DNA of 64,000 nt from Elusimicrobia bacterium GWA2_56_46 (GTDB taxonomy: Bacteria > Elusimicrobiota > Elusimicrobia > Elusimicrobiales > UBA9959). The notes under the pieces were generated by a model that was given only the letters and a program-made list of their open reading frames with translations, was not told the origin of the DNA and did not search any database. Position 1 is the stretch's first letter. Each line of letters begins with the position of its first letter. This document shows positions 73 to 28,220 of this stretch, one piece after another. The translations under genes and the position numbers were made by a program. The stretch covers positions 11,997 to 75,996 of the forward strand of contig MGTT01000027.1 of NCBI GenBank assembly GCA_001799575.1, written 5' to 3'.

Positions 73-332
73 TCAAGCAACAAGGAATAAAGACGAGCGG
101 CCATCATGTGCGTAAGCTTAACGCGGGGTGGCGGGGTGAGGCCTTTTCGACCCGGCAGGCCGCCGACGGAACGCGAAAAGGCCTCACCCCGACAGGCCCC
201 CGCTTTACTATCCTGCGGTGCACAAGCCAAGGCCGACCAGCCCCGCACTTGGCAAAGCGAGCCGGACAAAGAGAGCCAGGCACATTTTTCTGCTGAAAAA
301 TAAGCCTGGCACCTTTGCCCTGGCGCCTTTGC
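73..332. repeat. Structured repeat, type A copy 1 (core hairpin 123-203 plus REP-like hairpin 275-310)
   Basis: Near-identical to 2765-3000 and 4085-4326. Long imperfect inverted repeat GCGGGG..CCCCGC, plus GCCAGGC-ACATTTTTCTGCTGAAAAATAA-GCCTGGC. Confidence 0.95.
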
Positions 333-374
333 CTTTTTTGTCGGGACTGGGGACCGTCCCCATTTCACGGAGGT

Positions 375-1073
375 CTATTCCGGTTGGCTCAGGGGGAGGT
401 CGTCGCCGGGTGAGAAGGGGCGGGCTGCCGGGGTTTTGGAAGTGTGCTGAATCGGCGGCTTGCCTTGGGGAGTGGTTTCCTCCGACAGGAAGACCTGCAT
501 CCGATCATTTTCCCAGCGTATAGCATAAGAGTAAATGCCATCGCCCCCGACGCTGTCCAGCACCTTTTGCGACCGAAGAGAACCATTCTCATCCCGTGTA
601 AAAAGATAGCCGTCCTCACCATCCTCACTCGCAACCAGCCAATACCATGAACCGGCGTGAACATGCGCCTGAACGAGATTCCCCCTCTCGGCTTTACCGA
701 AAGCCCAAATGCTGAATCCAAGCATTAGCGCGCACAGCGTCCACCGGAATGTCCATTTCGCAACTTGGGTAGCGTACAGAAACTTATTTCTTATCTCAAA
801 CCCCAGAACTACAGGAGCCCAGGAGAACAGCAGAATAAGACGAACCCATCTCCAGATTCCTTCAGTTGCGAACCAGGGATCTTTTATTGACAGCCCGGTA
901 ACGACAGCCGGAATAACGAATATTGCAAATAGGAGCCATGGCCCCTGAATGCTTTTACGCCTGAGCAATATCGGCAGCATAATGACTCCGGCCAGTGTGA
1001 GCAGAAAGTATCCCACACCGAATCCTATCAACGTGACACCCGCTATAGTCATACTTTGTAGTGTATATATCAA
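375..1073 (-). CDS. Hypothetical membrane protein
   Basis: 232 aa ORF with about four hydrophobic segments then a soluble C-terminus; AT-richer than core genes. Confidence 0.7.
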   Translation of the reverse strand: MIYTLQSMTIAGVTLIGFGVGYFLLTLAGVIMLPILLRRKSIQGPWLLFAIFVIPAVVTGLSIKDPWFATEGIWRWVRLILLFSWAPVVLGFEIRNKFLYATQVAKWTFRWTLCALMLGFSIWAFGKAERGNLVQAHVHAGSWYWLVASEDGEDGYLFTRDENGSLRSQKVLDSVGGDGIYSYAIRWENDRMQVFLSEETTPQGKPPIQHTSKTPAARPFSPGDDLPLSQPE

Positions 1074-1106
1074 GAATTATCAAGAATATTCAATGCATTT
1101 TCTTGC

Positions 1107-1649
1107 TCATCTATTTTTCAATTCTTTTTCAGAATGCATACACAGAATGCCGGTAGCAACACTACCCTTAACTCCTGCGTGCATATCTCCATCGTAAAAA
1201 CGCATGCCGGTAGCTTTTAAAGAGCCATCTTCTGTCGAAGACCAATACCATTTCTTACACGTGTCGGATTGCTGCCTTTTAGCGCATTCCGCATCATAGA
1301 TTTGTCGTAATTCTTGCGCCGTAGGCAACCGGCCGCCATGGCTCTGGCAATAGGCTGCGGCATTATTCCAATTACACCCGCCATTCATGCAATCGGGGAC
1401 GCTCGCCGCTGGGCTCTCGTCCGCAGGAACCGGAGGTGTTACTGATTGTAAAACTAAAGCCTGCGATGGTATGTCCTGCCCGTTATTGTTGGCGTCAGGA
1501 CTATTGGTTCCGGCTGCTGGTGTTCTGGCCGGATTGGCTTGCGCAACTGCAGCCTGCGTTTCATCAGACTGAGCAACTTCTTTCCCCTTACATGAAACGG
1601 CAAACATCAGCGCCGCCATCGGCAACGCGAAAAACGCTGTTTTCTTCAT
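1107..1649 (-). CDS. Lipoprotein with C-terminal DUF1566/Lcl-like (C-type-lectin-fold) domain
   Basis: Lipobox FAVSC, low-complexity linker, motif WNNAAAYCQSHGGRLPTAQEL...WYWSS; GGAG RBS upstream. Confidence 0.75.
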   Translation of the reverse strand: MKKTAFFALPMAALMFAVSCKGKEVAQSDETQAAVAQANPARTPAAGTNSPDANNNGQDIPSQALVLQSVTPPVPADESPAASVPDCMNGGCNWNNAAAYCQSHGGRLPTAQELRQIYDAECAKRQQSDTCKKWYWSSTEDGSLKATGMRFYDGDMHAGVKGSVATGILCMHSEKELKNR

Positions 1650-1691
1650 TGGTTTACTCCTATAGTGAGGATCTAGTCACTGCCCGGACAA

Positions 1692-2597
1692 CTATTTTGT
1701 CCTGAAGTTGTCCCAAAAATAACCGATATCGCGTCTTACAGAACTTTCGCAGGGATCTGAGCATGCCTGCACCAGATAAAAATCAAATTTTTCTCCAATT
1801 TCTTTTTTAGCCATCACTTTGAATTTGATCCCGTGCCTTAAAATAATTTCGTCTTCCATATTATCCATAAGAACGCCTCGTTCTCCAGGGCGATTATTGT
1901 AGATGGCGAATATGGCTTTCAGGGTGGTCGTATCAGTTATTGGTCTAAAAAAGGGTACTGAGTGGGTCGCAAAGTGTTCCGCCACCGGATAAGAAGTTGT
2001 CGTGGAAGTATAACCTTTCTCAACAAACTCTTCATTGATACCATAGCTTTTGTTTGCCCTGAATTTCAGAGTAAGGCCGCGAAATAAAATCAGATCTCCT
2101 GGAAGTTGCGGAACGCGCGCGAAAAGACGATCCAGGTTTTTGACCATGGCTTCAGCTTTTTCCGGGCCAATCGTCTTCCATTCATAAGACTCGGGATAAA
2201 AGCGCAGATAACTATTGATATCCCTGTAATAGCTGTCGGCGACTCCCTGGTCGGTGTAAGTTTCAAGATCCCTAATTTCTTCCGGACTCGCGCCGAAATA
2301 ACCTGGATCCGGGTACCCCAGCTGGCTGTAAAGTACTTTGTAGTTGTAGACCTTGATGCCAAAAGCGGCCGCGCGGGAAAGTCCGACATCATCGTAAACC
2401 GCAACGGATACCGGCTGGGACTCCCCCTTGTTCGGCATTTCAGACTGAGCTTTGAGGCTCAGGACGGTTTCGTGAAAGGCAAGCCCGTTGGAAGGAGCTG
2501 CAAAATAAATATCAGCGGCGGCTACCGCAGTATTGGAGAAAAGCGCCGCTAAAACGAGAGGCAAACCGGCTTTGCGCAACTTTTTAAGCATACTCAT
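1692..2597 (-). CDS. Secreted ADP-ribosyltransferase (VIP2/C2-like, R-S-E clade)
   Basis: Signal peptide; YT..Y..INSYLR, LFRGL (R), YTSTT (S), MEDEIIL (ExE). Confidence 0.8.
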   Translation of the reverse strand: MSMLKKLRKAGLPLVLAALFSNTAVAAADIYFAAPSNGLAFHETVLSLKAQSEMPNKGESQPVSVAVYDDVGLSRAAAFGIKVYNYKVLYSQLGYPDPGYFGASPEEIRDLETYTDQGVADSYYRDINSYLRFYPESYEWKTIGPEKAEAMVKNLDRLFARVPQLPGDLILFRGLTLKFRANKSYGINEEFVEKGYTSTTTSYPVAEHFATHSVPFFRPITDTTTLKAIFAIYNNRPGERGVLMDNMEDEIILRHGIKFKVMAKKEIGEKFDFYLVQACSDPCESSVRRDIGYFWDNFRTK

Positions 2598-2764
2598 TTT
2601 GCTGTTGAACCTCTAAATAGGGTACAGTTTCCGCCAATCTCCGTCATGAGCCAAAGGTCCTAATCACTGCTTGTCTTTTGGCTCAACTTCCAAGACGATG
2701 GTATTTATTGACCTACACGTAATTAACTAAGGGCGTCCCCATTTTCCATTTTTATTTTCTTAGG

Positions 2765-3000
2765 AAGCGCCGGGCGGATAAAGCCTAGCGGCCATTATGT
2801 GCGTAAGCTTAACGCGGGGTGGCGGGGCGAGGCTTTTTCGACCCGGCAGGCTGCCGACGGAACGCGAAAAGGCCTCGCCCCGACAGGCCCCCGCTTTACT
2901 ATCCTGCGGTGCTATAGCCCAAAGCCCATTAGCCCCATATTTTTGGGCAAAAGTGCCAGGCACATTTTTCTGCTGAAAAATAAGCCTGGCACTTTTGCCC
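2765..3000. repeat. Structured repeat, type A copy 2 (core 2814-2894; REP-like hairpin 2945-3000)
   Basis: Direct-orientation copy of 73-332 and 4085-4326; 17-bp perfect arms GGGCAAAAGTGCCAGGC/GCCTGGCACTTTTGCCC. Confidence 0.95.
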
Positions 3001-3017
3001 CTTGCCGCGGTGTTTCG

Positions 3018-3156
3018 TTACTTCCAGACTCCGGGGATGGTGGTTGCACAATGGCCGCAGAGGCCTTTGCTTTTTTGGTAATTTTTATCGTGTTGTTCAG
3101 GATCCTGAAGCCGCGGCGCGTCACCAGCGTTTTTCCGCATGAAGAACATAAAGTGT
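3018..3156 (-). pseudogene. Duplicated, frameshifted 3' fragment of amrS
   Basis: Aligns with 4339-4478, with several substitutions and a 1-bp deletion at the T-run; TRRGFRILNNTIKITKK and GLC.HCA..IPGVWK fall in different frames. Confidence 0.9.
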
Positions 3157-3172
3157 AGGACTGGGGTGTGTT

Positions 3173-3928
3173 TTATGGATTCAGTTTTATATCCGCCCAA
3201 TTGAGTAAACTCGTCACGACTGCTTTAATATTGCGTTGGGTTTTATCCGTAGTTAATGTGCCAGTTGCCGCTGCAATACCAAAACCATGATCGCCTCCAG
3301 CGATGGAAATCCAGATATCGCCGCTGTCGTCTTTCAGAAAATCAAAAAGAGCAGGAATAGAGCAGTTATCGCTATCCTTATCGCCCATGGTCATTAAAAT
3401 TGGACGAGATTCTTTTTTTAAGCTGGGATACATATTGTCGCAGTCAGAAACTGATAGGCACAATGGTGTCAGTAGCGCCAGCGCCTTGACTGAGGGATCT
3501 TTGGCAAATACTCGGTAAGCAATCACGCTTCCCATGGACTTGCCTACGAGCGCCAGTCGTGGGGTATCTACCTTTTGAAGCGATTTAGCGAAAGTAATGA
3601 CAGTTTGCATATCCTCAATTTCGTTTTTTCCGCCTTGCGAGGGAGAAGGGTGCTGGGGGTCAGATAAGCAATAGGCCCATTCGAATCGCACGGCGGTTAT
3701 GCCTAAGTCAGGGGCCAGGTTCCCTATAGTTTCAAATAGTTGCGACTTAGCGTTACAACTGCGTCCTGGAGCAATAACCATTACCGAGCCAGACGATGTG
3801 TCGGAATTATGCACGATAACCTGAACATCAGCGCCCCGAGGTGTTTTTAGCATTTGAATAACCTCAGCGCGAGAGTTCGATGCAAAACATAAAAAGCATG
3901 CTGCCATCAATAAAATGACCGGATTCAT
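3173..3928 (-). CDS. Secreted alpha/beta hydrolase
   Basis: Signal peptide from MNPVILL (RBS AGAGG); GKSMG nucleophile, GDKD acid, GGDHGF His; AT-richer. Confidence 0.85.
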   Translation of the reverse strand: MNPVILLMAACFLCFASNSRAEVIQMLKTPRGADVQVIVHNSDTSSGSVMVIAPGRSCNAKSQLFETIGNLAPDLGITAVRFEWAYCLSDPQHPSPSQGGKNEIEDMQTVITFAKSLQKVDTPRLALVGKSMGSVIAYRVFAKDPSVKALALLTPLCLSVSDCDNMYPSLKKESRPILMTMGDKDSDNCSIPALFDFLKDDSGDIWISIAGGDHGFGIAAATGTLTTDKTQRNIKAVVTSLLNWADIKLNP

Positions 3929-4084
3929 GAAACACCTCTTTTTAGCACTCATTGGTATATATTGGGTCAAGGTCAAAGCATACCGAACAGTCTTGTGATA
4001 ACTTTTTCAGATGATATCAAATTTATGCCCGCATAAAATGGATCGTGCTTTCAACTGGAGACCGGCGGGGTGATTTGCGACAGG

Positions 4085-4326
4085 TCAAGCGGCGGGGGAT
4101 AAAGACGAGCGGCCATTATGTGCGTAAGCTTAACGCGGGGTGGCGGGGCGAGGCTTTTTCGACCCGGCAGGCTGCCGACGGAACGCGAAAAGGCCTCGCC
4201 CCGACAGGCCCCCGCTTTACTATCCTGCGGTGCTATAGCCCAAAGCCAATTAGCCCCGGAGCAAAGGAGCCAGGCACATTTTTCTGCTGAAAAATAAGCC
4301 TGGCACCTTTGCCCTGGCGCCTTTGC
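4085..4326. repeat. Structured repeat, type A copy 3 (core 4135-4215; REP-like hairpin 4261-4312)
   Basis: Same sequence family, immediately downstream of the amrS stop. Confidence 0.95.
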
Positions 4327-4338
4327 ACCGGTGTTTCG

Positions 4339-5397
4339 TTACTTCCAGACGCCGGGGATGGGGGCTGCACAATGGGCGCAGAGGCCTGTGCCTTTTTTTG
4401 TAATTTTTATGGTGTTGTTCAGGATCCTGAAGCCGCGGCGCGTCACCAGCGTTTTGCCGCATGAAGAACATAAAGTGTCTTCGTATCCCTGCCCCGGGAT
4501 ATTGCCGGTGTAGACGTATTTCAGACCTTTCTTCAATCCGATGTCGCGCGCTTTCAGCAGCGTTTCGGGAGGAGTGGCCCCCCGGTCGGTCATATTATAG
4601 GTCGGATAAAAAGCCGTGACATGCCAGGGAATGTCCCTGGAAATCCCCGAAATGAACCCCGCCACACTCTCAAGTTCTTCTTTACCGTCGTTAAAACCCG
4701 GAATAAGCAAAGTCACTATCTCCAGCCAGAACCCCTTGGCATGGACCATCTCTATCGCCCTGAGAACGTTTGAAAGCTTCCCACCCGCCACCTTCGCGTA
4801 ATTTTCCCCGTTAAAAGTCTTGAGATCCGCCTTGTAGAACTGAACATGGGGCTTTATATAATCCAGGACTTCCGACGAAGCATAGCCGTTGGAAACATAA
4901 GCGGCCCTGATACCATATTTGCGCGCCTCCTTGAAAACGGCCAGGCTCCACTCCGCGGTTATGAGCGGCTCATTGTACGTAGACACTATTATCGCCGCCC
5001 CCGCATCGCGCGCGGAAGCGGCAAGTTTCTCCGGAGTTGCCGGCGCAAGTTCCCCGGCATGGCAGGCGGGATCCCTGAGAACCTGCGACGTCAGATAGTT
5101 CTGGCAGAAAGAACATTTAAAATTACACCCCAGCATTCCGAAGGAAAACGTTAACGCGCCCGGCAGAACGTGGAATAAGGGCTTTTTTTCCACCGGATCC
5201 AGGCCATAGCCGGAAATATAACCCCAGGGAACCCTCAGTATGCCGCCCTCATTCAACCGAACCTTGCAGACGCCCGAGCCGTCCGGCGGTATCAGACATT
5301 TATGGGCGCAGGCTAGACAGCGCACGCGGCCGTCCGTCATTTTTTCGCAAAGTTCCGCCGGCGCGGAATATTTGCGAAGTTGTTCCATAAGGGTCAT
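4339..5397 (-). CDS. amrS: AmmeMemoRadiSam system radical SAM enzyme
   Basis: N-terminal CxxCxxxC...G.C.VR, DPVEKKPLFH, CNFKCSFC, TYNEP, C-terminal CxxC..CxxC. Confidence 0.9.
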   Translation of the reverse strand: MTLMEQLRKYSAPAELCEKMTDGRVRCLACAHKCLIPPDGSGVCKVRLNEGGILRVPWGYISGYGLDPVEKKPLFHVLPGALTFSFGMLGCNFKCSFCQNYLTSQVLRDPACHAGELAPATPEKLAASARDAGAAIIVSTYNEPLITAEWSLAVFKEARKYGIRAAYVSNGYASSEVLDYIKPHVQFYKADLKTFNGENYAKVAGGKLSNVLRAIEMVHAKGFWLEIVTLLIPGFNDGKEELESVAGFISGISRDIPWHVTAFYPTYNMTDRGATPPETLLKARDIGLKKGLKYVYTGNIPGQGYEDTLCSSCGKTLVTRRGFRILNNTIKITKKGTGLCAHCAAPIPGVWK

Positions 5398-5400
5398 AAA

Positions 5401-6303
5401 TCAAGTTGTTTCCGTTTTCCCCCACGTCGGGGCTTTAACATTAAGGGCTTTATGCAGCACGGAGATCCTGAGAGAGCCGCTATCGCTGAAATCTTCGCCG
5501 TCGAGATGATAGACGGAGCCCGGCGGAAAGCTTATCTCCATCAGGCCGGAAACGGCCGTCGTAACCAGGTCTGTGTGCCTGGGAAGCCGGCCGCCGAAAA
5601 GGTCGGGGACGGCAAGAAGCGTTTTTAAAATGCCGGCTTTTTTTATCACCACGAGATCCAGCAGTCCGTCGTCTATATAAGCGCCGGGCGCTACTTTCGC
5701 CCCCCCGCCGTACTGCTGGCCGTTAAGCACCGCGGTAACCATGGGAGAAAACTCAAGGCGGCGTCCGTTTATATTAACAACGGTGCGCAGCGGAGAATAT
5801 CTGAAAAACGCCAAAGCCGAGTGATAGACATACGGGAACAGTCCCCGCCGTCCGCCCAGCCGGGTATTGAAGATCCTGGCCACCTCCGCGTCCAGACCCA
5901 CGCCCGCCGCGCAGAAAAACGGCCTGCCGTTGGCGAGGCCCACGTCTATTTTCCGCGGTTCCCATTCCAGAAGGCCTTTGAGGGCGGCTTCCTGTCCGAG
6001 CGGGATGTAAAGGTTGCGGGCGAGACCGTTCCCCGAACCCAGCGGGAGTATGCCAAGCGCCGCTGACTTGCCGATAAGCGGTTCGGCCGCCTCCCGGATG
6101 GTGCCGTCGCCTCCGGCGGCGACTATATTGGTGAACCCCGCCAGCAGAGCCCTGCGCGAAAGTTCCAGACCGTGGCCTTTGCGTTCGGTCAACCCGATCT
6201 CATAATGGATCCCCCGGCCCCGGAAAAAAGCGTGGATGCGCCCGGACAGGCGCGCGCCGGAACCCTTGCCGGAAGTGGGATTGATAATGAAGAAATAAGA
6301 CAT
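5401..6303 (-). CDS. Diacylglycerol kinase family (YegS/DAGK) lipid kinase
   Basis: INPTSG, GGDGT, PLGSGNGLAR, GGG, DDGLLD, DGE motifs. Confidence 0.9.
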   Translation of the reverse strand: MSYFFIINPTSGKGSGARLSGRIHAFFRGRGIHYEIGLTERKGHGLELSRRALLAGFTNIVAAGGDGTIREAAEPLIGKSAALGILPLGSGNGLARNLYIPLGQEAALKGLLEWEPRKIDVGLANGRPFFCAAGVGLDAEVARIFNTRLGGRRGLFPYVYHSALAFFRYSPLRTVVNINGRRLEFSPMVTAVLNGQQYGGGAKVAPGAYIDDGLLDLVVIKKAGILKTLLAVPDLFGGRLPRHTDLVTTAVSGLMEISFPPGSVYHLDGEDFSDSGSLRISVLHKALNVKAPTWGKTETT

Positions 6304-6304
6304 G

Positions 6305-7024
6305 CTATTCTACGGCGCTGATGCCGGTGGCCCAGGGGGCTTTATCATTGGTGGGGGTCAGCCCCAGAAGTTTATTTCCGGAGGCGGCATCGCCTTTCTG
6401 ACACCTGAAGCGCACGATATAAGAGTACCCTATCTTCAGATCCGGTTTGTCGCCGATCAAGGAATCATCCTCGACATACAGATAATCGGCGTTTTTTCCT
6501 CCCTTGCTGCGCACCAGGTTAAGGAGCCAGCCTTTGGCGGTTTTTCTGGCCATGATCATCTGGAGTTCCATTTGCAGATCCCGGCCGGCGAAGCGCGCCG
6601 GATTCCTGAAAAAAGCGTCTTCGGAGCCGCGGACGGCTTCCTCTTCCTTTTTCGGTTCCGCGTACTCTGTCCCGCCGGGGAGCGGAGATTCCTCTTCCTG
6701 ATCGGCGGCTTCGCTGTCGTCGCCGGAAGACGGCGGGATCTTTATCGGCATTTCAAAATCTTCATCTTCCCGCTCCCGGCTTGCGGGCCGGGCGGGCCGC
6801 AACCCGGCCGCCGGCGTCTGGATTTCCGCCGCGACGGAGGGGTCCTCGGCCGCGCCCGAAGGCGGGATGGGAACGGCGGCGTAACTGGACGGATACTTGG
6901 CGGTGTAGGGAATCCCTTTCTTGACGCCCGACCGCTCTTTCATAAGATAACCGAGCGCGACGCCGATAAACAGCACCAGAAGAGTATTGATAAATCGCAG
7001 CCGGAAAAAATTCATAATTTTCAA
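6305..7024 (-). CDS. Membrane-anchored hypothetical protein
   Basis: N-terminal TM helix, Pro/Glu linker, beta-rich C-terminus; ends 1 nt before the DAGK start. Confidence 0.7.
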   Translation of the reverse strand: MKIMNFFRLRFINTLLVLFIGVALGYLMKERSGVKKGIPYTAKYPSSYAAVPIPPSGAAEDPSVAAEIQTPAAGLRPARPASREREDEDFEMPIKIPPSSGDDSEAADQEEESPLPGGTEYAEPKKEEEAVRGSEDAFFRNPARFAGRDLQMELQMIMARKTAKGWLLNLVRSKGGKNADYLYVEDDSLIGDKPDLKIGYSYIVRFRCQKGDAASGNKLLGLTPTNDKAPWATGISAVE

Positions 7025-7113
7025 GCGGGCCGTATATCACGAACCGCCTGATATATTGTATATTTTTAGTTGTTAATAAAAGATTGATTTTTTAAAAAAA
7101 TTCAGGAGGCTGG

Positions 7114-7866
7114 ATGAAAAATATTTTCGCCGCGTTTATCGCGCTGGGCTTTTTTACGCAGGTATACGGAGCCCAGGCCGACGGGGCGCCGGCGACCGCC
7201 TGCGTCTATCAATATAAGGGAGAGGTTCTGCTGATTGAGCCCGGCTATGAGACCTGGCTGCCGCTCCGGAGCGCGGTCACCCTCCGGGAAGGGGCGCGGC
7301 TTAAAACCGGGCCCGGCGCCTGGTGCCGGATACTGGCGGCGGACGGGACTTTTATAAATCTTTACGAGAATTCGGAAACGCTGGTTGAAAGACTCAGGCT
7401 TGAGAAAGACAACCGGGATTACGGTTTCAACTTTATAAAAGGACGCATACTCTGGATGGCGGCCAGGCTTAAACATAAGGCGTCCAAATTCGAGGTAAGG
7501 ACACCATCGGCCGTTTGCGCCGTGCGAGGCACGGATTTCACCATAGACCTGGCCTCCGCCGCGGCTGAGATCGGCCTGTTCGAGGGACAACTGGATGTCA
7601 AGAGCGGCGGGAAGGAAACCGTTCTGGCGGCCGGCAGCGAGGCTGTCGTGTCCGGCCCCGGGGCCGAAGCGGCGGTGAGCGCGCATTTCTCCGGATTGAT
7701 GCAGGCGGAGCAGCGCCGCTACCTTAAGCTTAAAAAGCGCGCCGAAGACCTCCGCCGGAAACTGGAAACCAGAGAAAACTTTATAGACGACTTCGTCAGG
7801 ATCCAGCAGCAAAAACTTCAGGATTTTGATAACCGCCGGCGGGAAAAACTCAACAAAAGGAAGTAA
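7114..7866 (+). CDS. FecR-domain exported protein
   Basis: Signal peptide; LKTG, DGTFINLYENS, FEVRTPSAVCAVRGTDF; coiled-coil tail; AGGAGG RBS. Confidence 0.85.
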   Translation: MKNIFAAFIALGFFTQVYGAQADGAPATACVYQYKGEVLLIEPGYETWLPLRSAVTLREGARLKTGPGAWCRILAADGTFINLYENSETLVERLRLEKDNRDYGFNFIKGRILWMAARLKHKASKFEVRTPSAVCAVRGTDFTIDLASAAAEIGLFEGQLDVKSGGKETVLAAGSEAVVSGPGAEAAVSAHFSGLMQAEQRRYLKLKKRAEDLRRKLETRENFIDDFVRIQQQKLQDFDNRRREKLNKRK

Positions 7867-7878
7867 AGGAAATAAGGG

Positions 7879-7910
7879 AGGGTAGAGATTTCAACTGCCC
7901 CCTCTACCCT
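7879..7910. terminator. Hairpin between convergent genes
   Basis: AGGGTAGAG/CTCTACCCT inverted repeat. Confidence 0.4.
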
Positions 7911-7915
7911 GATAT

Positions 7916-8980
7916 TTACGGTTTTACCAGTTCCGCTTCCAGGTCGTATGAGGAGGTCCGGTTCACCTTTACCGGAAACTTCGGATTTTTCATGAGGAGC
8001 TGCGACAGATCCGAGGCGGTTCCTTTCCTCAGGCCCACATCTATAGCGGCGACGCCGCCAGTCATGGTTCTGAGCCAGCAGTCGCGGATCAGCGGAATAT
8101 TCCTGAGCGATTTCATAAACTCGCTCAACTGGTTCATGCCGCTCACATTGGAGATGGTGACGCGGACCACGGATCGTTCCCGCAGAGCCTTGAGCACCCG
8201 GTCTTTGAGTTCCTCCCCGGCTTTCCGGGCGGAATTGATGATAGCGGCGCGGGCGGCGGACGGCTCGTTAAGATCTATTCCTCCGGAGGTCTCCTGGAGG
8301 GCCACGAGCGTTTCTCCCGAACCCTGTTTGACCGCGCTTATCGAAAGACCGGCACGGTAGGAGAGAAATCCCCCCAGACCTTCCCGCGTATTGAAATCGG
8401 ATTTAACGGAGCCCTTGATCAGGATATCGGCCTTATCCTTCTCCCCCGTCATAAAGCCGGCCTCGGAAAACTTGTGTTTAAGCTCCAGCGCGGCGTATTC
8501 CGTTTCCTGGGCCTTGCCATCCACGCTCTCCGCGATATCGAAACCTATGACGGGATTCCCCAGCTTCTGGGGCTCGTTCTCCAGTTTCCTGAGCTTGGCG
8601 GTGAGATCTTCTTTGCGCACGTGCGCCCGGATCTTTGTCTTGTAGAAATCCCCGTCCCTCGCTTCTTTCAGGATCTCGTATTTTTCGATATAACCTTCGG
8701 TCTGGGAAGTTATGGTGTCGTCGATAAGAATGGCCTTGGAAACCACGGCCTCCTGCGAAACATAGATGCCGACCACGAGGCCCAGGGCGCTTTTCATGGC
8801 CTCATTAAGGGCGGTTTTTCTGGCGCCTTCGACGTCTCCGTTAACTACGGGGGCCATGCCTTCGGCTTCCACCACTTCCGTTTCGTAAGCGCTGTTAAGC
8901 GCCGACTTGCGCGTGGCGGAGCAGCCGGCCAGCAGCAATCCGGCCATCAGGGAGGCGCATATAAGGGTATATCGTTTCAT
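7916..8980 (-). CDS. Lipoprotein with FlgT-N-like domain
   Basis: Lipobox LAGC; VEAEG...ARKTALNEAMKSALG..VG....EGYIEKYEIL pattern. Confidence 0.7.
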   Translation of the reverse strand: MKRYTLICASLMAGLLLAGCSATRKSALNSAYETEVVEAEGMAPVVNGDVEGARKTALNEAMKSALGLVVGIYVSQEAVVSKAILIDDTITSQTEGYIEKYEILKEARDGDFYKTKIRAHVRKEDLTAKLRKLENEPQKLGNPVIGFDIAESVDGKAQETEYAALELKHKFSEAGFMTGEKDKADILIKGSVKSDFNTREGLGGFLSYRAGLSISAVKQGSGETLVALQETSGGIDLNEPSAARAAIINSARKAGEELKDRVLKALRERSVVRVTISNVSGMNQLSEFMKSLRNIPLIRDCWLRTMTGGVAAIDVGLRKGTASDLSQLLMKNPKFPVKVNRTSSYDLEAELVKP

Positions 8981-9071
8981 AAATTTAGTGGTTAGTGACT
9001 ATCACACGAGGAAATTCCCCGATCTGTTTCAGGCACTGACCACTGATCACTCGCCACTAACCACTGATCAA

Positions 9072-9521
9072 TTAATCCGCTATCTTAAGGCCGGCGTCCT
9101 TCAGGGCCTTTTTGGAAAGCCTGAGCACCACCACGCAGCCGTCGTCGGCGGTCCACTCCGACCTGACCACCTGCGCGCCCTTGATCACGGAGTCTATCTT
9201 GGTGGCAAGCACGGAATCGGTTTCAATGGCTTTCTCCACGGTAATGCCGCCTTCGAGGTTCACGCCCTTGATGAAAGACAGCATATTGTACTGTGCGTTG
9301 ACGATGGAGGCGTTCCTGGACGTGGCCATGCGCTGGGTCTTATTTTCCAGGGTCTGATCCGCCGCGCCGATGCCGCGGGCGAAGACGAAGTTTTTGGTGA
9401 CGCCCTCTTCAGCCCATTCCCGTTCGATCTCGCCCTTGTCCGAAACGGTGCCTTTCTGGTTAGTGGTCGAGCAGCCCGCCACTAAAAGCGAAAGAGCCGC
9501 CAGCGCTAAAGTTTTTTTCAT
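9072..9521 (-). CDS. LPP20-like lipoprotein
   Basis: Start MKKTLALAALS with GGAGG RBS; lipobox VAGC; ARGIGA...VIKGAQVV pattern. Confidence 0.75.
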   Translation of the reverse strand: MKKTLALAALSLLVAGCSTTNQKGTVSDKGEIEREWAEEGVTKNFVFARGIGAADQTLENKTQRMATSRNASIVNAQYNMLSFIKGVNLEGGITVEKAIETDSVLATKIDSVIKGAQVVRSEWTADDGCVVVLRLSKKALKDAGLKIAD

Positions 9522-9651
9522 TTTAAAGTCCCTCCGTGGAAAAGGCGCCTGTTCCCGCACGCCTTCCTTTCCTTATTCTATAAATAAGCCAGATAGCTGT
9601 CAAATGCGGCCGCCTAAATCCCCCGCTAAGCATACGGCCGCATAGGGTGAC

Positions 9652-9862
9652 AGATTTTACCCAATGGGTGAAAGAGGTTCCCCCCACGGTCGGCAGGCCT
9701 GCCAGTTCGCGGGGCCTGCCGGGGGTCCGGAACGCAAAAACGGTGTCGGCCACACCGTGGCCGCACCTCCGGACCTCGCTCGGCGCGCTTACGCAAGCGC
9801 CGAGCTCCGGTACGGTTTTGCTAACCCGGCCCCCCGGCACCCGCTCCAATTATACGCCTGCC
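9652..9862 (+). repeat. Structured repeat, type C (GCC-bulge hairpin family, branched apex)
   Basis: TTACCCAATGGGTGAAA end motif; GGCAGGC stem; CTGCCAGTTC loop; GCGGG-GCC-TGCC...GGCA-CCCGC; CCAATTATAC. Confidence 0.8.
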
Positions 9863-10009
9863 TCGGTTTTACAACTTATCTGTTCCGCACATGAAACCAG
9901 ACCACAAAGCGCTCATAAAAAATAGAATGCCTCTTGTGGTCTTTCCAATTCAACACAGGAGGCATTCTATTATTACAATACGACATAAACCGGGCAGTTT
10001 TAAAGTGGG

Positions 10010-10254
10010 AATCAGCCCAAATCCTCCACTAAGCGGTAATCCCGCCGATACGGCTGCTTCCGCAATGTTCTGTATTGGAAGGATGGCGGCGGGGTATAAC
10101 TGGAGGGGTGCCAGCCATGGGGCGAATCGGGCCGAGGAGGAACCGGCGCGAAGTCGCCGGGCCGGCCGCAGGCCCGATTCGCCCCATGGCTGGCAGGCCC
10201 CCGCACTTGCAGCCCGCCGCCATTTTTCCACTTTTCACCCAATGGGTGAAATCT
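10010..10254 (-). repeat. Structured repeat, type B copy 1
   Basis: Reverse complement aligns with 28015-28220; about 160-nt hairpin with compensatory changes. Confidence 0.9.
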
Positions 10255-10302
10255 TCTCATCAATGGCGCAGGCTTGTTAGAGGAGGATTTGGGAGCCTGA
10301 AG

Positions 10303-11481
10303 TTAGTATATCAGGTATAAATCGGAATTTTTTTCGGCGGGGGCCGCTTCGCGTTTCCTGGGCCTTACCGGCTCTTTTACGGCTGGTTTCACCGCTTTTT
10401 TGGGCCGGGGAAGATCTTCTTCCTCATGGTAACGGGGCTTTTTGTGCTCACCGGGACGCCAGCCCGTGAACTTATAAGAAAATGAAACCTGGGAGGTATT
10501 AAAGACCTCGCTTGCCAGCGACATCGCGAAATCCAGGGAGAAGCCTTCGTGATGTATCCCTAATCCCATCGTGCCGCCCCTGTTGTCTTCCAGCGCTTTA
10601 TACCCCAGCCGGAAGTTGAAAATTTTTTCAAAATGGTATTCCAGTCCGGCCCGGAAACTTTTGAGGCTCTCGGTAGTGTAAAAATCGTTTTCCACCGCCA
10701 GCAGAACAGACTGGTCCAGAACGGTCGGCCGCTCATAAGCGAGGCCGAGCCGCAGGATAGACGGCAGAGGCGAGGTCTCTTTAAGATACTTGACGCCGGT
10801 TCCGTAGTTGGAGAGCGCCGCGCCGAACGTAAGACCAAGATTAGTCTCCCGCACCAGCCAGCCCGCGTCCAGCGCGAAAGCCGAGGCCGAGTACTTGCCC
10901 AGAAGTTCCGAACCGATATATTTGGCCGAGAGGCCCAGGTATTGGTCAAAGGCGGCCTTGTAGCCCTCGATCCTGGTTTCACCGGAATAAACTTTCTCTC
11001 CGTAAGTCAGGGATAAGATCCTGTTCGATTCGGCGTCCATATCGCTGGCCGACACGGAACCGTCTGCGTTTATCCGCCGGTAGGTGAACTGTCCGCTCTG
11101 GGTAAAGACGGCGGAAACGGCCATGCCGGGCCTGGCGCGCCCGGCGATCCCCGTGATCGGCAGCGGCATACCAAAAGCCAGATATTGCAGTTTGGAGTCC
11201 TCGAACCCGGAAAGATACATCGCCGAGGCTTCCGGCAGGTAAAGCTGTCCGAGGCCGGCCGGATTGTAATGCGCCGCGTAGATATCGTCCGCGACGGCGG
11301 CAAAACTACCCCCCATGCCCATCGCGCGGGGACTCATATCCGTCTTGAGGATCTGCACGCTCGCGGATCCCGGCCCGCCGGCATAGCCGGTAACCGGTAA
11401 CCAGTAACCAGTGGCCAGTATAAAGGAAAACAGAAACATCCGGGCAGATGTGCTTTTCCTGTTATACCTTGAAATACGCAT
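10303..11481 (-). CDS. PorV/PorQ-like (UPF0164) outer-membrane beta-barrel protein
   Basis: SPRAMGMGGSFAAVADD..A.HYNPAGL, A.D.G, LP..LRLG, GLEY....FRLGY; start uncertain. Confidence 0.8.
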   Translation of the reverse strand: MRISRYNRKSTSARMFLFSFILATGYWLPVTGYAGGPGSASVQILKTDMSPRAMGMGGSFAAVADDIYAAHYNPAGLGQLYLPEASAMYLSGFEDSKLQYLAFGMPLPITGIAGRARPGMAVSAVFTQSGQFTYRRINADGSVSASDMDAESNRILSLTYGEKVYSGETRIEGYKAAFDQYLGLSAKYIGSELLGKYSASAFALDAGWLVRETNLGLTFGAALSNYGTGVKYLKETSPLPSILRLGLAYERPTVLDQSVLLAVENDFYTTESLKSFRAGLEYHFEKIFNFRLGYKALEDNRGGTMGLGIHHEGFSLDFAMSLASEVFNTSQVSFSYKFTGWRPGEHKKPRYHEEEDLPRPKKAVKPAVKEPVRPRKREAAPAEKNSDLYLIY

Positions 11482-16125: not shown

Positions 16126-16199
16126 TGCCCCCTAGAGGGATCGAACCTCTAACCTACTGCTCCGAAGGCAGTCGCTCTATCCAGTTGAGCTAAGGGGGC
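16126..16199 (-). tRNA. tRNA-Arg (anticodon TCG), CCA not encoded
   Basis: GCCCCCT/AGGGGGC acceptor, TAGCTCAACTGGATAGAGC D-arm, ACTGC-CTTCGGA-GCAGT anticodon arm, GGTTCGATCC T-arm. Confidence 0.95.
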
Positions 16200-21701: not shown

Positions 21702-22862
<1,161 letters not shown>

Positions 22863-22902: not shown

Positions 22903-23169
22903 ATGAACCCTAACGCAGCTTTCATGCAATTCGTGCCGTTGATCGCCATCATGGCGATATTTTATTTTCTGCTCATCCGCCCCCAGCAGAAGCAGGCGAA
23001 AGAACGCAAACTCATGCTTGAAGCCATAAAGGCGGGAGACAAAATCCTCACCAACGGCGGGATCGTCGGCCTTGTCACTGGCATGAACGGCGACGATCTG
23101 GAAGTGGAAATAGCCAAAAACGTGAAAGTCACCGTGGTAAGGTCGGCTGTCGCCGGCCTCATTAAATAA
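22903..23169 (+). CDS. yajC: Preprotein translocase subunit
   Basis: FYFLLIRPQQK, GDKILTNGGIVG. Confidence 0.95.
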   Translation: MNPNAAFMQFVPLIAIMAIFYFLLIRPQQKQAKERKLMLEAIKAGDKILTNGGIVGLVTGMNGDDLEVEIAKNVKVTVVRSAVAGLIK

Positions 23170-23182
23170 CAGGAGCCGCAAA

Positions 23183-25503: not shown

Positions 25504-26111
25504 TGCGCAAGATAAAAAAATTCAAGATCCCCATCTACACCTATGAGATCCTGCGCAAGGCCAAAAAACGCAGGATAGACCTGTTCGCCCTGGGCCTGGC
25601 CGACCAGGAAAGCGCCAGGGAATATATCTCGTCCCTCGCGGCGGCCCTTGAACCCTCCACGGTATTCGATCTCATCGCCCCGGAAGACGCTCTGGCGAAG
25701 GAAAGCGGCCTCCAGGGCATGACCGGCACGCTCGGCGTTATGACGCTCGGGACGGCTTTTGAGACGAAACTTAAAGCCATAACGGATCCGGAACTTTTCC
25801 GGCTCGCCGAGACCGCCGCGCTGGTTTTCTCGGAAACCGGGCTTAAAGTCATAACCGAACTTATTGCCCAGGAAGTTACGGCCGAAGGACTGGATCTTGG
25901 AAAACCCAACTATCTTTTCGCCTGCCCGGAACCGGAAACCGAGGAACCGCCCTCCGTCCGGTCGGACGCCGCCGTCCTGGCCGCCTGCCTGGGACGCCTC
26001 AACGCGGATAAAATAGGCATCAGCCTGAACGAAAGCGTTCTCAGCCCGGCGTATTCCTTTATCTTCAGCCTCCCCTGGCTGGCAAAGAAAAAATTGTCCG
26101 CAAAAAAATGA
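25503..26111 (+). CDS. Hypothetical protein, weakly MetH activation-domain-like
   Basis: Coupled to secF; TLG..FE and IGISLNES..SP..S recall stand-alone activation-domain proteins (uncertain). Confidence 0.55.
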   Translation: MRKIKKFKIPIYTYEILRKAKKRRIDLFALGLADQESAREYISSLAAALEPSTVFDLIAPEDALAKESGLQGMTGTLGVMTLGTAFETKLKAITDPELFRLAETAALVFSETGLKVITELIAQEVTAEGLDLGKPNYLFACPEPETEEPPSVRSDAAVLAACLGRLNADKIGISLNESVLSPAYSFIFSLPWLAKKKLSAKK

Positions 26112-26737
26112 ATGAGTCAACACGCTCAAGCCCCGTCTACGCGCTCCTCTCCTCGTTAGCCTGGCTGTATCTGCTGTTCGCCGGTTCCACCACCCGGATA
26201 AAAACGCGCAACAGTCCGGCGCGGACCGATTTCATCTACGCGCTATGGCATTCCCAGCTGGCGTTCATGATCTACGCGAAACGCAATACCTGGATCTCCG
26301 TCCTGGTAAGTAAAAGCGGGGACGGGGAATATGTGGCCAGGATCCTGCGCAAATTCGGACTGAATACCATACGCGGCTCCACCAGCCGGGGAGCTTCCCA
26401 GTCCCTCATGGAGCTTATGGAACGGGCCGGCAAGGGCTTCCCGGTGGCTCTGACCCCGGACGGGCCGAAAGGCCCCAAAGGCAAGGTTCAGCAGGGGATC
26501 GTTTACCTGGCCCAGAAAACCGGCATGGAAATACTGCCCGGCGGGGTCTGGCTCTCCAACAAAATAACCTTTAATTCCTGGGACAACTTCGAACTTCCGC
26601 TGCCTTTCGGCAGAGCGGCGCTTGTTTACGGCAAGCCTATCAAAGTGACCGCGACGGACTCCCTGCCGGCCAAGGCCGCGGAACTGGAGGCGGCCCTGAA
26701 CGCCCTCGAACCCGAAGCGCTGGAACTGCTCAAATAA
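26108..26737 (+). CDS. DUF374 acyltransferase (LpxJ-like)
   Basis: WH, VSKSGDGE, IRGSTSRG, TPDGPKGP, SWD.F.LPLPF; next to waaA. Confidence 0.85.
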   Translation: MNESTRSSPVYALLSSLAWLYLLFAGSTTRIKTRNSPARTDFIYALWHSQLAFMIYAKRNTWISVLVSKSGDGEYVARILRKFGLNTIRGSTSRGASQSLMELMERAGKGFPVALTPDGPKGPKGKVQQGIVYLAQKTGMEILPGGVWLSNKITFNSWDNFELPLPFGRAALVYGKPIKVTATDSLPAKAAELEAALNALEPEALELLK

Positions 26738-28011
26738 TGGGCCTTTTACTCCTTATCCTTTACAATCTTCTGGCGCCGCTCATAGCGGCGCTCTATTTCG
26801 TTTTTTTCTTATTTTCCCCCAGGCGCGGGCTGCTTAAAAATTTTCTGGCGGAGCTTAAAGAGCGCCTGGCCGTGAATCTTCCCGTTTTCGCGGAACGGCC
26901 GTTATGGTTTCACGCGGCCTCGGTAGGAGAAGTAAGGGCGCTGAAAGCGCTCCTCCCCCTGGTGCGGGAACGCTGCCCTTCGAAACCGGTGCTGATAACC
27001 ACGTCAACCTCCTCCGGCAAGGCGGAGGCCCTGAAACTGACGCCCGCCGCCGTTCTTCTCCCTCTGGATTTTTATCCGCTGATGCGCCGCTTCATCTCCG
27101 GGATCAGACCCGAACTGATCCTGATCGCGGAAACCGAACTTTGGCCGAACCTGCTTTATGCGGCCGGCAAGGAGAAAGTGAAAGTGCTGCTGATAAACGC
27201 GCGCATTTCAGCCGGAACCCTGGGATTCTACAGGCTGTTCCCGCCCCTCGCCCGCCTGATGTTCAGCGGCATAGTAAAAATCTCAGCCCAGAGCCGGGGA
27301 GATTTTGAAAGGTACGGCCTCCTGCCGGGCGTAAAGGATAAACTGATCCTGACCGGAAATATAAAATACGACCTGGCTTCGCCGGCGCCGGAGGGACGGG
27401 CCGAAATAGAAGCGTTCTTTGAGAGCTCGGGCTGGAAAGGTAAAAAAATCTTCTGCGCGGGCAGCACCCATCCGGAAGAGGAAGATTTGCTCCTGGACGC
27501 TTTTCTGAAGATAAAAGCGGCCTGTCCGGACGCCCGGCTTATAATAGCCCCCCGCCACCCGGAAACGGCCGCTTCGACCGCGGCCAGGATCAGGAACAAA
27601 GGGCTGATCGCGCCTCTCTGGTCCAGGCGCGGACACGCCCGCCCCGACCCCGACGGAGTTCTGGTGGATGAGACAGGCCGGCTGGCGGATATTTATTCTT
27701 TCGCGGACGTGGTCTTCGTCGGAGGAACGCTGGACGATACCGGCGGGCACAACGTGCTTGAACCCTCGGCGTTCTCCAGGCCGGTGCTCTTCGGCCCGAA
27801 CGTGAAGAACACGCGGGAAGGCGCCGAAGCGCTTATAAGCAAAAACGGCGGCTTCATGATACGAACCTCCGAAGAACTGGCCGACAAAGCAATTTCGCTT
27901 CTTAAAGATCCCTCAGCCCTCAGCGAAGCCGGCGCCGCCTCCAAAGCGGCCCTGGCGTCCCTCCAGGGCGCCACAAATAAAACCCTGTCCATTATCGAAA
28001 TTTATCTTTAA
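26737..28011 (+). CDS. waaA: Kdo transferase
   Basis: WFHAASVGE, ETELWPN, INARIS, GNIKYD, GSTHPEEE, APRHPE, GGHNVLEP. Confidence 0.95.
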   Translation: MGLLLLILYNLLAPLIAALYFVFFLFSPRRGLLKNFLAELKERLAVNLPVFAERPLWFHAASVGEVRALKALLPLVRERCPSKPVLITTSTSSGKAEALKLTPAAVLLPLDFYPLMRRFISGIRPELILIAETELWPNLLYAAGKEKVKVLLINARISAGTLGFYRLFPPLARLMFSGIVKISAQSRGDFERYGLLPGVKDKLILTGNIKYDLASPAPEGRAEIEAFFESSGWKGKKIFCAGSTHPEEEDLLLDAFLKIKAACPDARLIIAPRHPETAASTAARIRNKGLIAPLWSRRGHARPDPDGVLVDETGRLADIYSFADVVFVGGTLDDTGGHNVLEPSAFSRPVLFGPNVKNTREGAEALISKNGGFMIRTSEELADKAISLLKDPSALSEAGAASKAALASLQGATNKTLSIIEIYL

Positions 28012-28014
28012 CCT

Positions 28015-28220
28015 GTTGGGTGAAAGTGGAAAAATGGCGGCGGACTGCCAGTTCGGGGGCCTGTCGGACATGGGGCCCATCGGGCCTGCGGCCGGCCCGG
28101 CGACTTCGCGCCGGTTCCTCCTCGGCCCGATCCGACCCATGTCCGCCACCCCGCCAGTTATACTCCGCCGCCATCCTTCCTATCGATAAAAACAGCTTGT
28201 CGGAGGATTTGGCCTGACTT
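28015..28220 (+). repeat. Structured repeat, type B copy 2
   Basis: Aligns with the reverse complement of 10010-10254; starts just after the waaA stop. Confidence 0.9.

Follow-up and report, generated by a model that had tools for sequence, protein, structure and literature searches.

What kind of element is a hairpin that recurs on both strands of a bacterial contig with the same bulged base but with different apices and ends? The window analyzed here, a 64,000-nt stretch of the Elusimicrobia bacterium GWA2_56_46 genome (contig C27), contains six such hairpins. We found that they belong to a multicopy, intergenic and structurally constrained family whose termini recur in unrelated phyla. Their best explanation, to which we assign a probability of about 0.6, is a lineage-wide family of non-coding extragenic palindromes, selfish and non-autonomous DNA of the REP, RPE or MITE kind, organized round a modular core.

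All six sites proposed in the initial annotation carry the hairpin GGGG-GCC-TG(T/C)C...G(C/G)CA-CCC(C/G) as it had been described (6/6), and both examples of compensatory pairing quoted there are correct. The string GGGGCCTGYC is found six times in the window against an expectation of 0.64, and none of 100 shuffles reaches six. Folded as DNA, the hairpins have z-scores from -3.53 to -8.12, with none of 200 dinucleotide shuffles folding as well.

Three minus-strand hairpins, at 123-203, 2814-2894 and 4135-4215, share an outer frame that we call frame A and read GCGGGGGCCTGTCGGGG(T/C)GAGGCC...GGCCTC(A/G)CCCCGCCACCCCGCGTTAAG. The copy at 123-203 (covariance-model match C27:12121-12197; DNA fold -34.4 kcal/mol, z -6.05) has a P2 stem of GGGG/CCCC, a GCC bulge and a P3 stem of TGTC..GCCA. 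The hairpin sequences of the other two copies are identical (both z -4.74; matches C27:14812-14888 and C27:16133-16209). The first copy lies in a 164-nt minus-strand repeat unit at 82-245 (family D1), which occurs again at 2773-2936 and 4094-4257 (84%, 100% and 98%); across these 164 nt, the three copies are nearly identical (84-98% relative to the reference copy). The units are flanked by ..ACCGCAGGATAGTAAAGC on the 5′ side and GCGTTAAGCTTACGCACAT(G/A)ATGG on the 3′ side, and the frame is found on other contigs too. The units at 2773-2936 and 4094-4257 also lie inside a segmental duplication of ~400 bp. Consequently, the six hairpins are not six independent witnesses.

The remaining three hairpins have other frames. 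The class C hairpin at 9692-9862 on the plus strand (z -7.67; match C27:21677-21870) reads CGGGGCCTGCC...GGCACCCG, then CTCCAATTATAC; it has an outer stem P1 (GGCAGGCC/GCCTGCC), a P2 stem of CGGG/CCCG, the GCC bulge and a long branched apex, and it has relatives on nine other contigs. The frame B hairpin at 10074-10234 on the minus strand (z -8.12; -118.9 kcal/mol with RNA parameters) adds inverted terminal arms to the core, TGGAARRATGGCGGCGGG / CCCGCCGCCAT..TCCA, and has internal loops CTGCAAGTGC / TCCAGTTATAC. Its inverted copy, 90% complementary to it, lies on the plus strand at 28023-28183 (z -3.53), 12 nt after the stop codon of a Kdo-transferase gene (PF04413, 26737-28011). Within these two hairpins, 10077-10229 (minus strand) and 28028-28180 (plus strand) read GGGGGCCTG(C/T)C-(AGCCATGG/GGACATGG) on the 5′ side and (CCATGGCTG/CCATGTCC)G(G/C)CACCCC on the 3′ side, followed by (T/G)CCAGTTATAC.

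Other repeat modules adjoin the hairpins. The minus-strand frame B hairpin is enclosed in a 276-nt composite unit at 10017-10292 (C27:22013-22288), bounded by inverted CCAAATCCTCC..GGAGGATTTGG, whose terminus also opens three distinct repeat modules at other genomic sites. The palindrome TTTCACCCAATGGGTGAAA at 10233-10251 adjoins the 5′ end of the same hairpin; it has a near copy ahead of the class C hairpin (9656-9673) and a half-site at 28016-28026, and it lies upstream of at least 10 frame B copies. A similar palindrome, TTTCAC..GTGAAA, flanks the hairpins of a deltaproteobacterial array. A separate REP-like doublet, GCCAGGCACATTTTTCTGCTGAAAAATAAGCCTGGCAC (family D2), precedes the frame A copies at 262-332 and occurs again at 2942-3012, 4256-4326 and 49643-49713; its motif AAAGGTGCCAGGC also flanks a Y1-transposase gene on contig C6.

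Across the 2.66-Mb genome, a search by motif and inner pairing identified 67 copies, and a covariance-model scan returned 105 matches at 81 loci, for a union of about 89 loci. Although the gene calling used for this count makes the genome 89% coding, 66 of the 67 motif-defined copies are intergenic and only one overlaps a called gene. The core is 70-175 nt long and runs from an unpaired head through a 4-bp clamp, a (G/T)CC bulge on the 5′ arm, a TGYC/GSCA step (often with a pyrimidine-pyrimidine mismatch) and a long stem to a tail, with 30-45 bp in the stems. The clamp is GGGG/CCCC in 60 copies and CGGG/CCCG in 7. Heads are GTTC in 31 of the 67 copies, AAGC in 8, GTGC in 7 and TTCG in 6, with others in the rest; tails are TCCA in 34 and GCCA in 3, and frame A copies have GCGT or TTAG instead. 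The core is carried by several outer frames (A, B and C), and internally deleted derivatives are present. The bulge was initially described as invariant, which is correct for the six hairpins; genome-wide, it is GCC in 52 copies and TCC in 15. Even so, the bulge and stem base are the most conserved part of the element, across phyla too, and the middle of the long stem is hypervariable yet complementary.

The data strongly support that selection or another process holds the arms complementary. In an alignment built without fitting to structure, 94.1% of cells are paired, compared to 81.8% in shuffles (0/500), and 83 cells carry double changes, compared to 24 in shuffles (0/500); in slid controls, pairing is 55.5% at most. 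Both sides have changed in 17 of 40 stem pairs, and the outer stem P1 also varies with compensated changes. The proposal that the structure is under selection is upheld as far as the maintained complementarity goes, but compensated changes could also arise if one arm were corrected by the other or if copies exchanged whole cores.

Comparison of orthologous sites shows gain or loss of the family. Where the window has a 742-nt spacer (9561-10302), four genomes of the same genus have ~110-150 nt and a fifth has a longer stretch, ~410 nt between matched gene parts; the repeats are absent from the equivalent spacer in all five congeners. Matches to the element were found in 5 of 6 same-genus and 11 of 24 same-family genomes, and in none of 16 genomes of two sister families. 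At orthologous sites of other species, elements persist, sometimes with a different core type; therefore, retention by selection for a host function may apply. Comparison of flanks and orthologous sites yielded neither a target-site duplication nor a clean empty site at nucleotide resolution.

The core also extends far beyond this lineage. An exact 23-position pattern matched 49 stretches, 26 in Legionellaceae, 13 in Elusimicrobia MAGs and 10 in others, with no match in Coxiella records; core termini also occur in the deltaproteobacterial array. Cross-phylum copies open CGTC-GGGG or TGTC-GGGG and close CCCC-TCCA. Their heads are CGTC, TGTC or GGTC, the first two in Legionellaceae, Chitinivibrionia and Saccharibacteria. 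Legionellaceae copies sit within a ~300-nt unit. Three cross-phylum copies (L117, L080 and L123) fold weakly (z -0.4 to +0.8).

Five of the ten remaining stretches lie inside genes, on the same strand and in frame: a class-I aaRS, RNase HII, the 5′-3′ exonuclease domain of Pol I, a translational GTPase and a PurL-like gene. Such housekeeping genes with in-frame core termini occur in Saccharibacteria, Levybacteria and others. The insertions in essential genes have roughly the length of the core, and in alignments to PDB structures, 29 and 39 residues replace 4-5 loop residues. The RNase HII insert is absent from nine extracted family orthologues (of 12 loci returned), six of which have a short loop of 8-11 residues, whereas the other three carry different insertions in that loop. 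These coding insertions belong to other phyla only, compared to the single overlap with a called gene among the 67 copies of the window's genome.

No mobilizing enzyme for the family was found in the genome. Two Y1_Tnp ORFs are present, on contigs C6 and C21; the first is flanked by different palindromes, AAAAGGTGCCAGGCACCTTTT, and none of the family's hairpins lies alongside the second. Among relatives, 9 of 11 with the element and 16 of 29 without it have Y1_Tnp, indicating no association. Pairs of frame B ends 150-18,000 nt apart, as in an autonomous element, were not found, nor was any repeated IS-size element with the family's ends in this genome.

The family is independent of gene and replication orientation. 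The hairpins could be structured RNAs, transcribed with their neighbors or from their own promoters as mRNA stabilizers, processing sites or small RNAs, with the bulged base as an RNA-protein site. Such a role would fit the strong covariation of the arms, the conservation on the named strand of G:T pairs (G:U in RNA; 73, compared to 17 A:C mismatches, in counts that are not independent), the gene 3′ end on the 5′ side of 39 of 67 copies and the copies kept at orthologous sites between species; by one published account, many REPs act as RNA elements (PMC3733652). However, tandem gene contexts are mixed (25 co-oriented and 19 anti-oriented copies, beside 13 convergent and 9 divergent), none of the six window hairpins has a T-tract or a terminator call, and RNA function would not predict that cores occur within coding genes, in two reading frames and in one case antisense. 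Rfam also offers no family: at the gathering threshold, the window gave tRNA only, positions 1-10400 gave sub-threshold microRNA-type noise at E<=10, and eleven other-phylum loci gave no match at the sites. The RNA role initially allowed for thus draws no support from orientation or terminator features, and we consider it improbable.

It is also unlikely, in our view, that the element is an ordinary TIR-type MITE descended from a DDE insertion sequence. Here, the larger frame would move as double-stranded DNA with the bulged core as its passenger, the mobile unit being either the B unit of ~160 nt, whose inverted ends are TGGAARRATGGCGGCGGG, or units of 276-640 nt ending in CCAAATCCTCC. Inverted frame B ends, CCAAATCCTCC termini and recurrent composites of 400-640 bp are indeed observed, the Legionellaceae unit has its own terminal inverted repeats, and random orientation (34 versus 33 copies with respect to GC skew, no bias) is consistent with a unit that moves as double-stranded DNA. 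An rve-type IS contains a class C hairpin in the interval separating its transposase stop from its right inverted repeat, and one hairpin lies 119 nt from a DDE_Tnp_1 gene. However, the rve IS, on contig C20, has different 23-bp inverted repeats and the hairpin is internal to it; no IS in the present genome has matching ends, no target-site duplication was seen and only two paired CCAAATCCTCC units were found. P1 carries compensated changes where a transposase-binding end would be expected to stay constant, and what is conserved across phyla and in gene insertions is the core, not the frames. Integron attC-like sites, single-strand hairpins with extrahelical bases that close gene cassettes, are a very remote candidate. 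Three frame A copies are co-oriented, 1.3-2.7 kb apart and each after an ORF, and their end GTTAAGC presumably fits the attC 3′ core-site consensus. Against this, frame B has GTTATAC and class C ATTATAC, the 5′ complement of a GTTA-type core site is absent at the six hairpins, the three tyrosine recombinase (PF00589) matches are all on other contigs (C4, C9 and C28) and the roughly 89 loci, in either orientation, are spread over the whole genome.

Under the preferred reading of a selfish palindromic DNA family, the element would spread as DNA, with its hairpin formed in single-stranded DNA or extruded as a cruciform. The asymmetric base (head, bulge and tail) would direct binding and cleavage by a putative trans-acting hairpin-DNA enzyme, possibly HUH/Y1-like by analogy with TnpA(REP), and effects on neighboring genes would be secondary. 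In REPs, the bulge and 5′ tetranucleotide are required by TnpA(REP), an HUH transposase (PMC8266576). By that analogy, the conserved bulge and stem base fit a recognition determinant, as initially suggested; no partner protein was identified.

A bolder and more tentative possibility is that the core hairpin (NGTC head, clamp, bulge, TGYC/GSCA and CCA-like tail) is a promiscuous, self-contained mobile module across at least five or six phyla, without a traveling transposase. It would settle in palindromes between genes and also, with the reading frame kept, in surface loops of essential genes, and its movement would need a universal host activity or an unrecognized hairpin-DNA enzyme that reads the bulged base. 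The groups concerned, which occur in groundwater and freshwater metagenomes, are Elusimicrobiota, Legionellaceae, a deltaproteobacterium, Saccharibacteria, Levybacteria and Chitinivibrionia.

How orphan palindromic repeats multiply, including CGTC REPs, Rickettsia RPEs and organellar GC clusters, is a problem of long standing, and the mobile module, if real, would offer a general testable model for the spread of REP/RPE-type palindromes. The family is an unusually informative case because the asymmetric base is conserved and can be separated from a stem that covaries freely, because its pair geometry is strict and because its termini are shared by very dissimilar genomes, some of them tiny CPR genomes that encode few candidate enzymes. 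The coding insertions in RNase HII, Pol I, aaRS and PurL can be given an age by comparison with insertion-free orthologues. In practice, the roughly 89 GC-rich hairpins fragment assemblies and give rise to spurious ORFs in these MAGs.

It was fair to call the family unrecognized: it is absent from Rfam, but its kind, extragenic palindromic repeats, is well known. Classical bacterial MITEs such as Correia and ERIC combine conserved TIRs with target-site duplications and a cognate IS. The present elements resemble them as non-coding long hairpins of 100-300 bp between genes, but their inverted ends covary rather than being fixed, and no duplication is visible at the flanks. Strand bias is expected of HUH/RAYT systems, whereas the present family has none. 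Like GTAG REP/REPINs, it is extragenic and high-copy, forms inverted doublets and evolves within the genome, and Y1 HUH proteins are encoded in this genome. However, there is no GTAG head, the cores (70-175 nt) are three to five times longer than the 20-40 nt imperfect palindromes of REP/REPIN-RAYT systems, and the REPtron layout, a RAYT gene flanked by its own repeats, does not occur in this genome. Both are imperfect palindromes with a bulge, which is functionally important in REPs (PMC8266576).

Two further families are alike in description. RPE-1-type Rickettsia elements (see also PMC3733652) are ~100-150 bp palindromes between genes whose in-frame copies add loop residues to proteins, as the present core does in other phyla; the window genome's copies are almost all intergenic (66/67). 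The small form of Coxiella QMITE2, a hairpin of 83-100 nt, shares the conserved stem and divergent tip; it is known from several proteobacterial classes, and some copies lie in frame within ORFs (PMC5896051).

The closest described layout is that of the CGTC-tagged REPs (Di Nocera et al. 2013), a superfamily that includes Rickettsia RPE-4 and RPE-6 and Neisseria dRS3 (PMC3733652). Their defining stems of 8-9 bp, opening with A-T pairs, and loops of 4-5 nt differ from the present stems of 30-45 bp, which start from GGGG and carry a 3-nt bulge; the present genome has GTTC, AAGC or GTGC in place of the CGTC head; and close pairs, mostly head-to-head in those REPs, are tail-to-tail here (13/13 pairs within 700 nt, and in Legionellaceae MAGs as well). 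In other respects, the two coincide (PMC3733652): both have an unpaired 4-nt head before the stem (theirs CGTC, often TGTC) and end in a short unpaired tail that fits CCA, both are extragenic and high-copy, both form inverted dimers with head-to-tail ones almost absent, both have in-frame intragenic copies, notably in replication and repair genes, and both do so without a dedicated transposase.

The 64-kb window contains exactly six instances of the string GGGGCCTGYC, against 0.64 expected and with none of 100 shuffles reaching six, and every occurrence lies at a hairpin: 123-203, 2814-2894 and 4135-4215 on the minus strand (frame A), 9692-9862 on the plus strand (class C), and 10074-10234 (minus) and 28023-28183 (plus), both in frame B. 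When read out, all six matched the sequences in the initial annotation, which had described them as hairpins with an invariant GCC-bulged stem. Folded as single-stranded DNA, each is far more stable than its 200 dinucleotide shuffles (z between -3.5 and -8.1). Judged by their sequences, the six hairpins are not independent witnesses, because the three left-end minus-strand copies belong to a common 164-nt unit (84-98% identity to the reference copy), two of them sit within a duplication of roughly 400 bp, which extends over the 3′ ends of two genes as well, and the 10074-10234 and 28023-28183 hairpins are inverted copies that are 90% identical. A comparison with Rfam, one of the checks that the initial annotation had proposed, found no family for the hairpins at gathering or permissive thresholds, either in the window or at the foreign loci. 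The window's only gathering-level match is a tRNA gene (16126-16199, minus strand, 68.5 bits). A scan of positions 1-10400 for intrinsic terminator and promoter consensus sequences returned about as many matches as expected from shuffles, and it called no terminator at any hairpin.

The gene cluster at 1-5400 has low codon-usage scores and includes an ADP-ribosyltransferase exoenzyme-family ORF (1692-2597), an Lcl_C-domain ORF, an alpha/beta hydrolase and a radical SAM gene; the last two have about 160 nt in common at their 3′ ends (2999-3156 and 4320-4478). The region may be horizontally acquired and partly duplicated. Elsewhere in the window, a perfect 29-nt inverted repeat (28482-28510 and 28649-28677, arms 138 nt apart) lies within a roughly 240-nt repeat (28474-28715 region) found again on other contigs and in genomes of the same genus, where the matches cover query positions 1175-1416. 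It is a further dispersed repeat family.

We found that the hairpins belong to a large family in their own genome (2.66 Mb, 30 contigs). A motif search that tolerated a single mismatch in each half and demanded inner pairing recovered 67 copies. The covariance model and genome scan, which had also been proposed, were carried out with a model built from 18 short copies; its 105 matches correspond to 81 loci, 24 of them matched on both strands, and the union with the motif set comprises 89 loci. From the outside inward, the anatomy begins with P1, an outer stem about 10 bp long that varies in sequence among copies with compensated changes, and an internal loop of conserved, non-complementary strands (5′ CTGCNAGTTC, 3′ TCCARYTATAC). 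There follow a 4-bp clamp (GGGG/CCCC in 60 copies, CGGG/CCCG in 7), a 3-nt bulge (GCC in 52, TCC in 15) and the TGYC/GSCA segment, in which a T-C or C-T mismatch usually occupies position three (TGTC/GCCA in 29 copies, TGCC/GTCA in 20). The middle of the stem is hypervariable yet complementary, and the upper stem and apex are conserved within each of at least three apex classes, with core lengths of 75-77, 95-98 and about 132 nt. One core is carried by several outer frames. Frame A, without P1, follows an unrelated, second REP-like doublet; frame B is bounded by inverted ends; and class C makes a third. Two copies have a whole frame-B unit nested inside a frame-A context. There are recurring composites of 400-640 bp, and internally deleted derivatives are present.

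The data supports a constraint that keeps the two arms complementary. In a MAFFT alignment (A1) made without fitting to any structure, 94.1% of 712 cells are paired, compared to 81.8% in shuffles (0 of 500), and 83 cells are changed on both sides, compared to 24 (0 of 500). Double changes occur in 17 of 40 pairs, and sliding the partner by 1-3 columns lowers pairing to 55.5% or less. The initial annotation had concluded that the structure is under selection, and the maintained complementarity is in keeping with this; the same pattern, however, could be mimicked by arm-to-arm correction or by exchange of whole cores between copies, since other species can retain the frame at an orthologous site but have a different core type there, with the arms changing together. 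The second part of that claim, that the bulge is a protein determinant in single-stranded DNA or RNA, is also partly supported. The bulge and clamp are invariant within A1, but both the protein partner and the nucleic-acid form in which it would act are hypothetical. The invariant bulged base is a putative protein determinant only by analogy to GTAG REPs, where an HUH enzyme is shown biochemically to read a bulge and a 5′ tetranucleotide on single-stranded DNA (PMC8266576).

Several other known structures were also considered. Tandem G-A pairs are absent beside the bulge, which speaks against a kink-turn, and a bulge-helix-bulge intron would have a second bulge that the hairpin lacks. A tRNA-acceptor-like 3′ end (CCCC-N-CCA), as a substrate of RNase P or the CCA enzyme, does not fit the frame A copies, which have no CCA. 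Integron attC sites were rejected on the hairpin sequences themselves and on a tyrosine-recombinase search of the genome.

The arrangement of the copies is that of an intergenic repeat. With 89% of the genome called coding by a codon-usage caller, 66 of the 67 motif copies are intergenic. With respect to their flanking genes they are variously placed, in co-oriented tandem contexts in 25 cases, anti-oriented tandem in 19, convergent in 13 and divergent in 9, with one copy at a contig end, and hairpin orientation has no relation to GC skew or local gene strand in this genome. All 13 pairs within 700 nt are tail-to-tail, with none head-to-head or tandem, although perhaps only 6-7 of these are independent cases because several are copies of one composite. 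The window contains one such pair, 9692-9862 (plus) with 10074-10234 (minus).

The 742-nt spacer that holds this pair is about 110-150 nt long in four same-genus genomes, none with these repeats; in a fifth it is longer, with about 410 nt separating the matched parts of the genes, and is also free of them. The flanking genes are only 72-84% identical among relatives and the spacers do not align, so exact junctions are unreadable and no nucleotide-level empty site was obtained at this spacer among same-genus relatives. Covariance model matches were present in five of six same-genus genomes, 11 of 24 family genomes and none of 16 in two sister families, counts that represent a sample of incomplete genomes. 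Many cores are flanked by direct repeats, which read CCAGTT in frame B and, for some copies of frame A, TAGTAAAA. We do not claim a target-site duplication, because the genome holds internal deletions only and no empty frame. Fragmentary contigs from four DNA runs yielded only short-sided joints (22-32 nt), probably from other copies or organisms.

We also searched for an enzyme that could mobilize the family. The genome has two Y1 (HUH) transposase-like genes, but a RAYT link was rejected: these genes are not flanked by the hairpins and do not co-occur with them, Y1_Tnp being present in 9 of 11 relatives with the hairpin family and 16 of 29 without. Their flanks carry another palindrome, whose motif is that of the doublet next to frame A (on both sides on contig C6). 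This second, unrelated REP-like family consists of AAAGGTGCCAGGC inverted doublets, located in the window at 262-332, 2942-3012, 4256-4326 and 49643-49713. Its palindrome stands on both sides of a 209-aa Y1 (HUH) transposase-like gene around C6:83051-83843, a REPtron-like arrangement. The family's count, 230 matches at two or fewer mismatches, is noisy because the reversed-genome control gives 119.

No autonomous element with frame-B ends was found in the genome, and no insertion sequence there carries such ends. Other transposases comprise a single rve match and three to DDE_Tnp_1, of which one falls below the cut-off, with no matches to IS110 or TnpB-type genes. Two transposase genes lie beside a hairpin, which by a rough estimate is not beyond chance. 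One neighborhood is an rve-type insertion sequence (C20:20891-22490) that has 23-bp inverted repeats and adjoins a tRNA gene; it holds a class C hairpin in the stretch from the transposase stop codon to the right end of the element. This single case is a possible vehicle for the hairpin. An all-against-all BLAST of 472 ORFs near hairpins, from 49 foreign loci and the own genome, identified no recurrent neighboring protein family beyond orthologous neighbors. A 159-aa ORF with no Pfam family occurs between two tail-to-tail pairs and only there (C12:35595-36074 and, truncated, C16:164449-164643), and the repeat module itself supplies the codons for its C-terminal residues. Viral contigs gave no matches to the hairpin pattern.

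The unexpected part, which lies outside the window and draws on one pattern scan and a handful of loci, is that the core termini recur across phyla and in essential genes. An exact pattern of 12 and then 11 specified positions, separated by 50-80 nt, was run against one genome each of about 185,000 species and matched 49 stretches. Thirteen are in seven Elusimicrobia MAGs and 26 in three Legionellaceae MAGs, where two cores stand tail-to-tail in a unit of roughly 300 nt that has inverted ends of its own. In a deltaproteobacterial MAG (locus L111, 4497-5776), at least seven core hairpins are arrayed in both orientations. The array lies downstream of an rsmG-like gene, and a 264-aa ORF without annotation stands beside its start. 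Each of its cores is bracketed by the palindrome GTGTTTCACGTGAAACA (TTTCAC..GTGAAA), which resembles the palindrome adjoining frame B in the window. Single stretches come from two Saccharibacteria, a Levybacteria, a Chitinivibrionia and an Eisenbacteria MAG and from two further bacteria. About two chance matches are estimated for the scanned collection, and the matches at loci L107 and L116, which form no hairpin (z = -1.66 and +0.89), are probably such. Folding strength outside the phylum ranges from z = -6.4 to +0.8; for the foreign copies we claim common termini and layout, not equal stability.

In five of the 49 stretches, the core is on the coding strand, with the frame open, inside a housekeeping gene: a class-I aminoacyl-tRNA synthetase, RNase HII, the 5′-3′ exonuclease domain of Pol I, a translational GTPase and a PurL-like gene. 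When aligned to solved structures, 29 and 39 residues replace the 4-5 loop residues of homologues; therefore, the insert matches the core rather than the frames in approximate length. The Saccharibacteria RNase HII insert (27 residues, 81 nt) is absent from nine extracted orthologues of the sampled Saccharibacteria family, six with a short loop and three with other insertions there. These three (L149, L151 and L148, from genomes G071, G058 and G076) have unrelated insertions of 22-29 residues in the same surface loop, two with a common ..NTKY(K/Q)IQDT.. stretch. The loop is an insertion hot spot, and a second coding insert family may be present at it. The gene inserts use two different reading frames of the core, one further core is antisense in a 586-residue ORF, and other cores in the same small genomes are intergenic. 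Consequently, the conserved entity is the DNA and not a peptide.

A literature search of limited coverage found no description of the hairpin family in Elusimicrobia or CPR. The closest described layout is that of the CGTC-tagged REP superfamily, in which an unpaired CGTC or TGTC head, a stem and a CCA tail form inverted dimers (PMC3733652). The same paper counts some Rickettsia RPEs within the superfamily and describes intragenic copies, especially in replication and repair genes, with no dedicated transposase. The cross-phylum copies of our core start with CGTC or TGTC and end with TCCA. However, the 8-9 bp, A-T-first stem and 4-5 nt loop given there are not found in the hairpin family, the heads in the window's own genome differ, and its pairs are tail-to-tail. 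Because stem, loop, heads and pair geometry differ from that description, we file the hairpin family as one that works like the CGTC-tagged REPs and is not a member of them: it is a new, unusually long, bulged form of a well-known selfish palindromic repeat.
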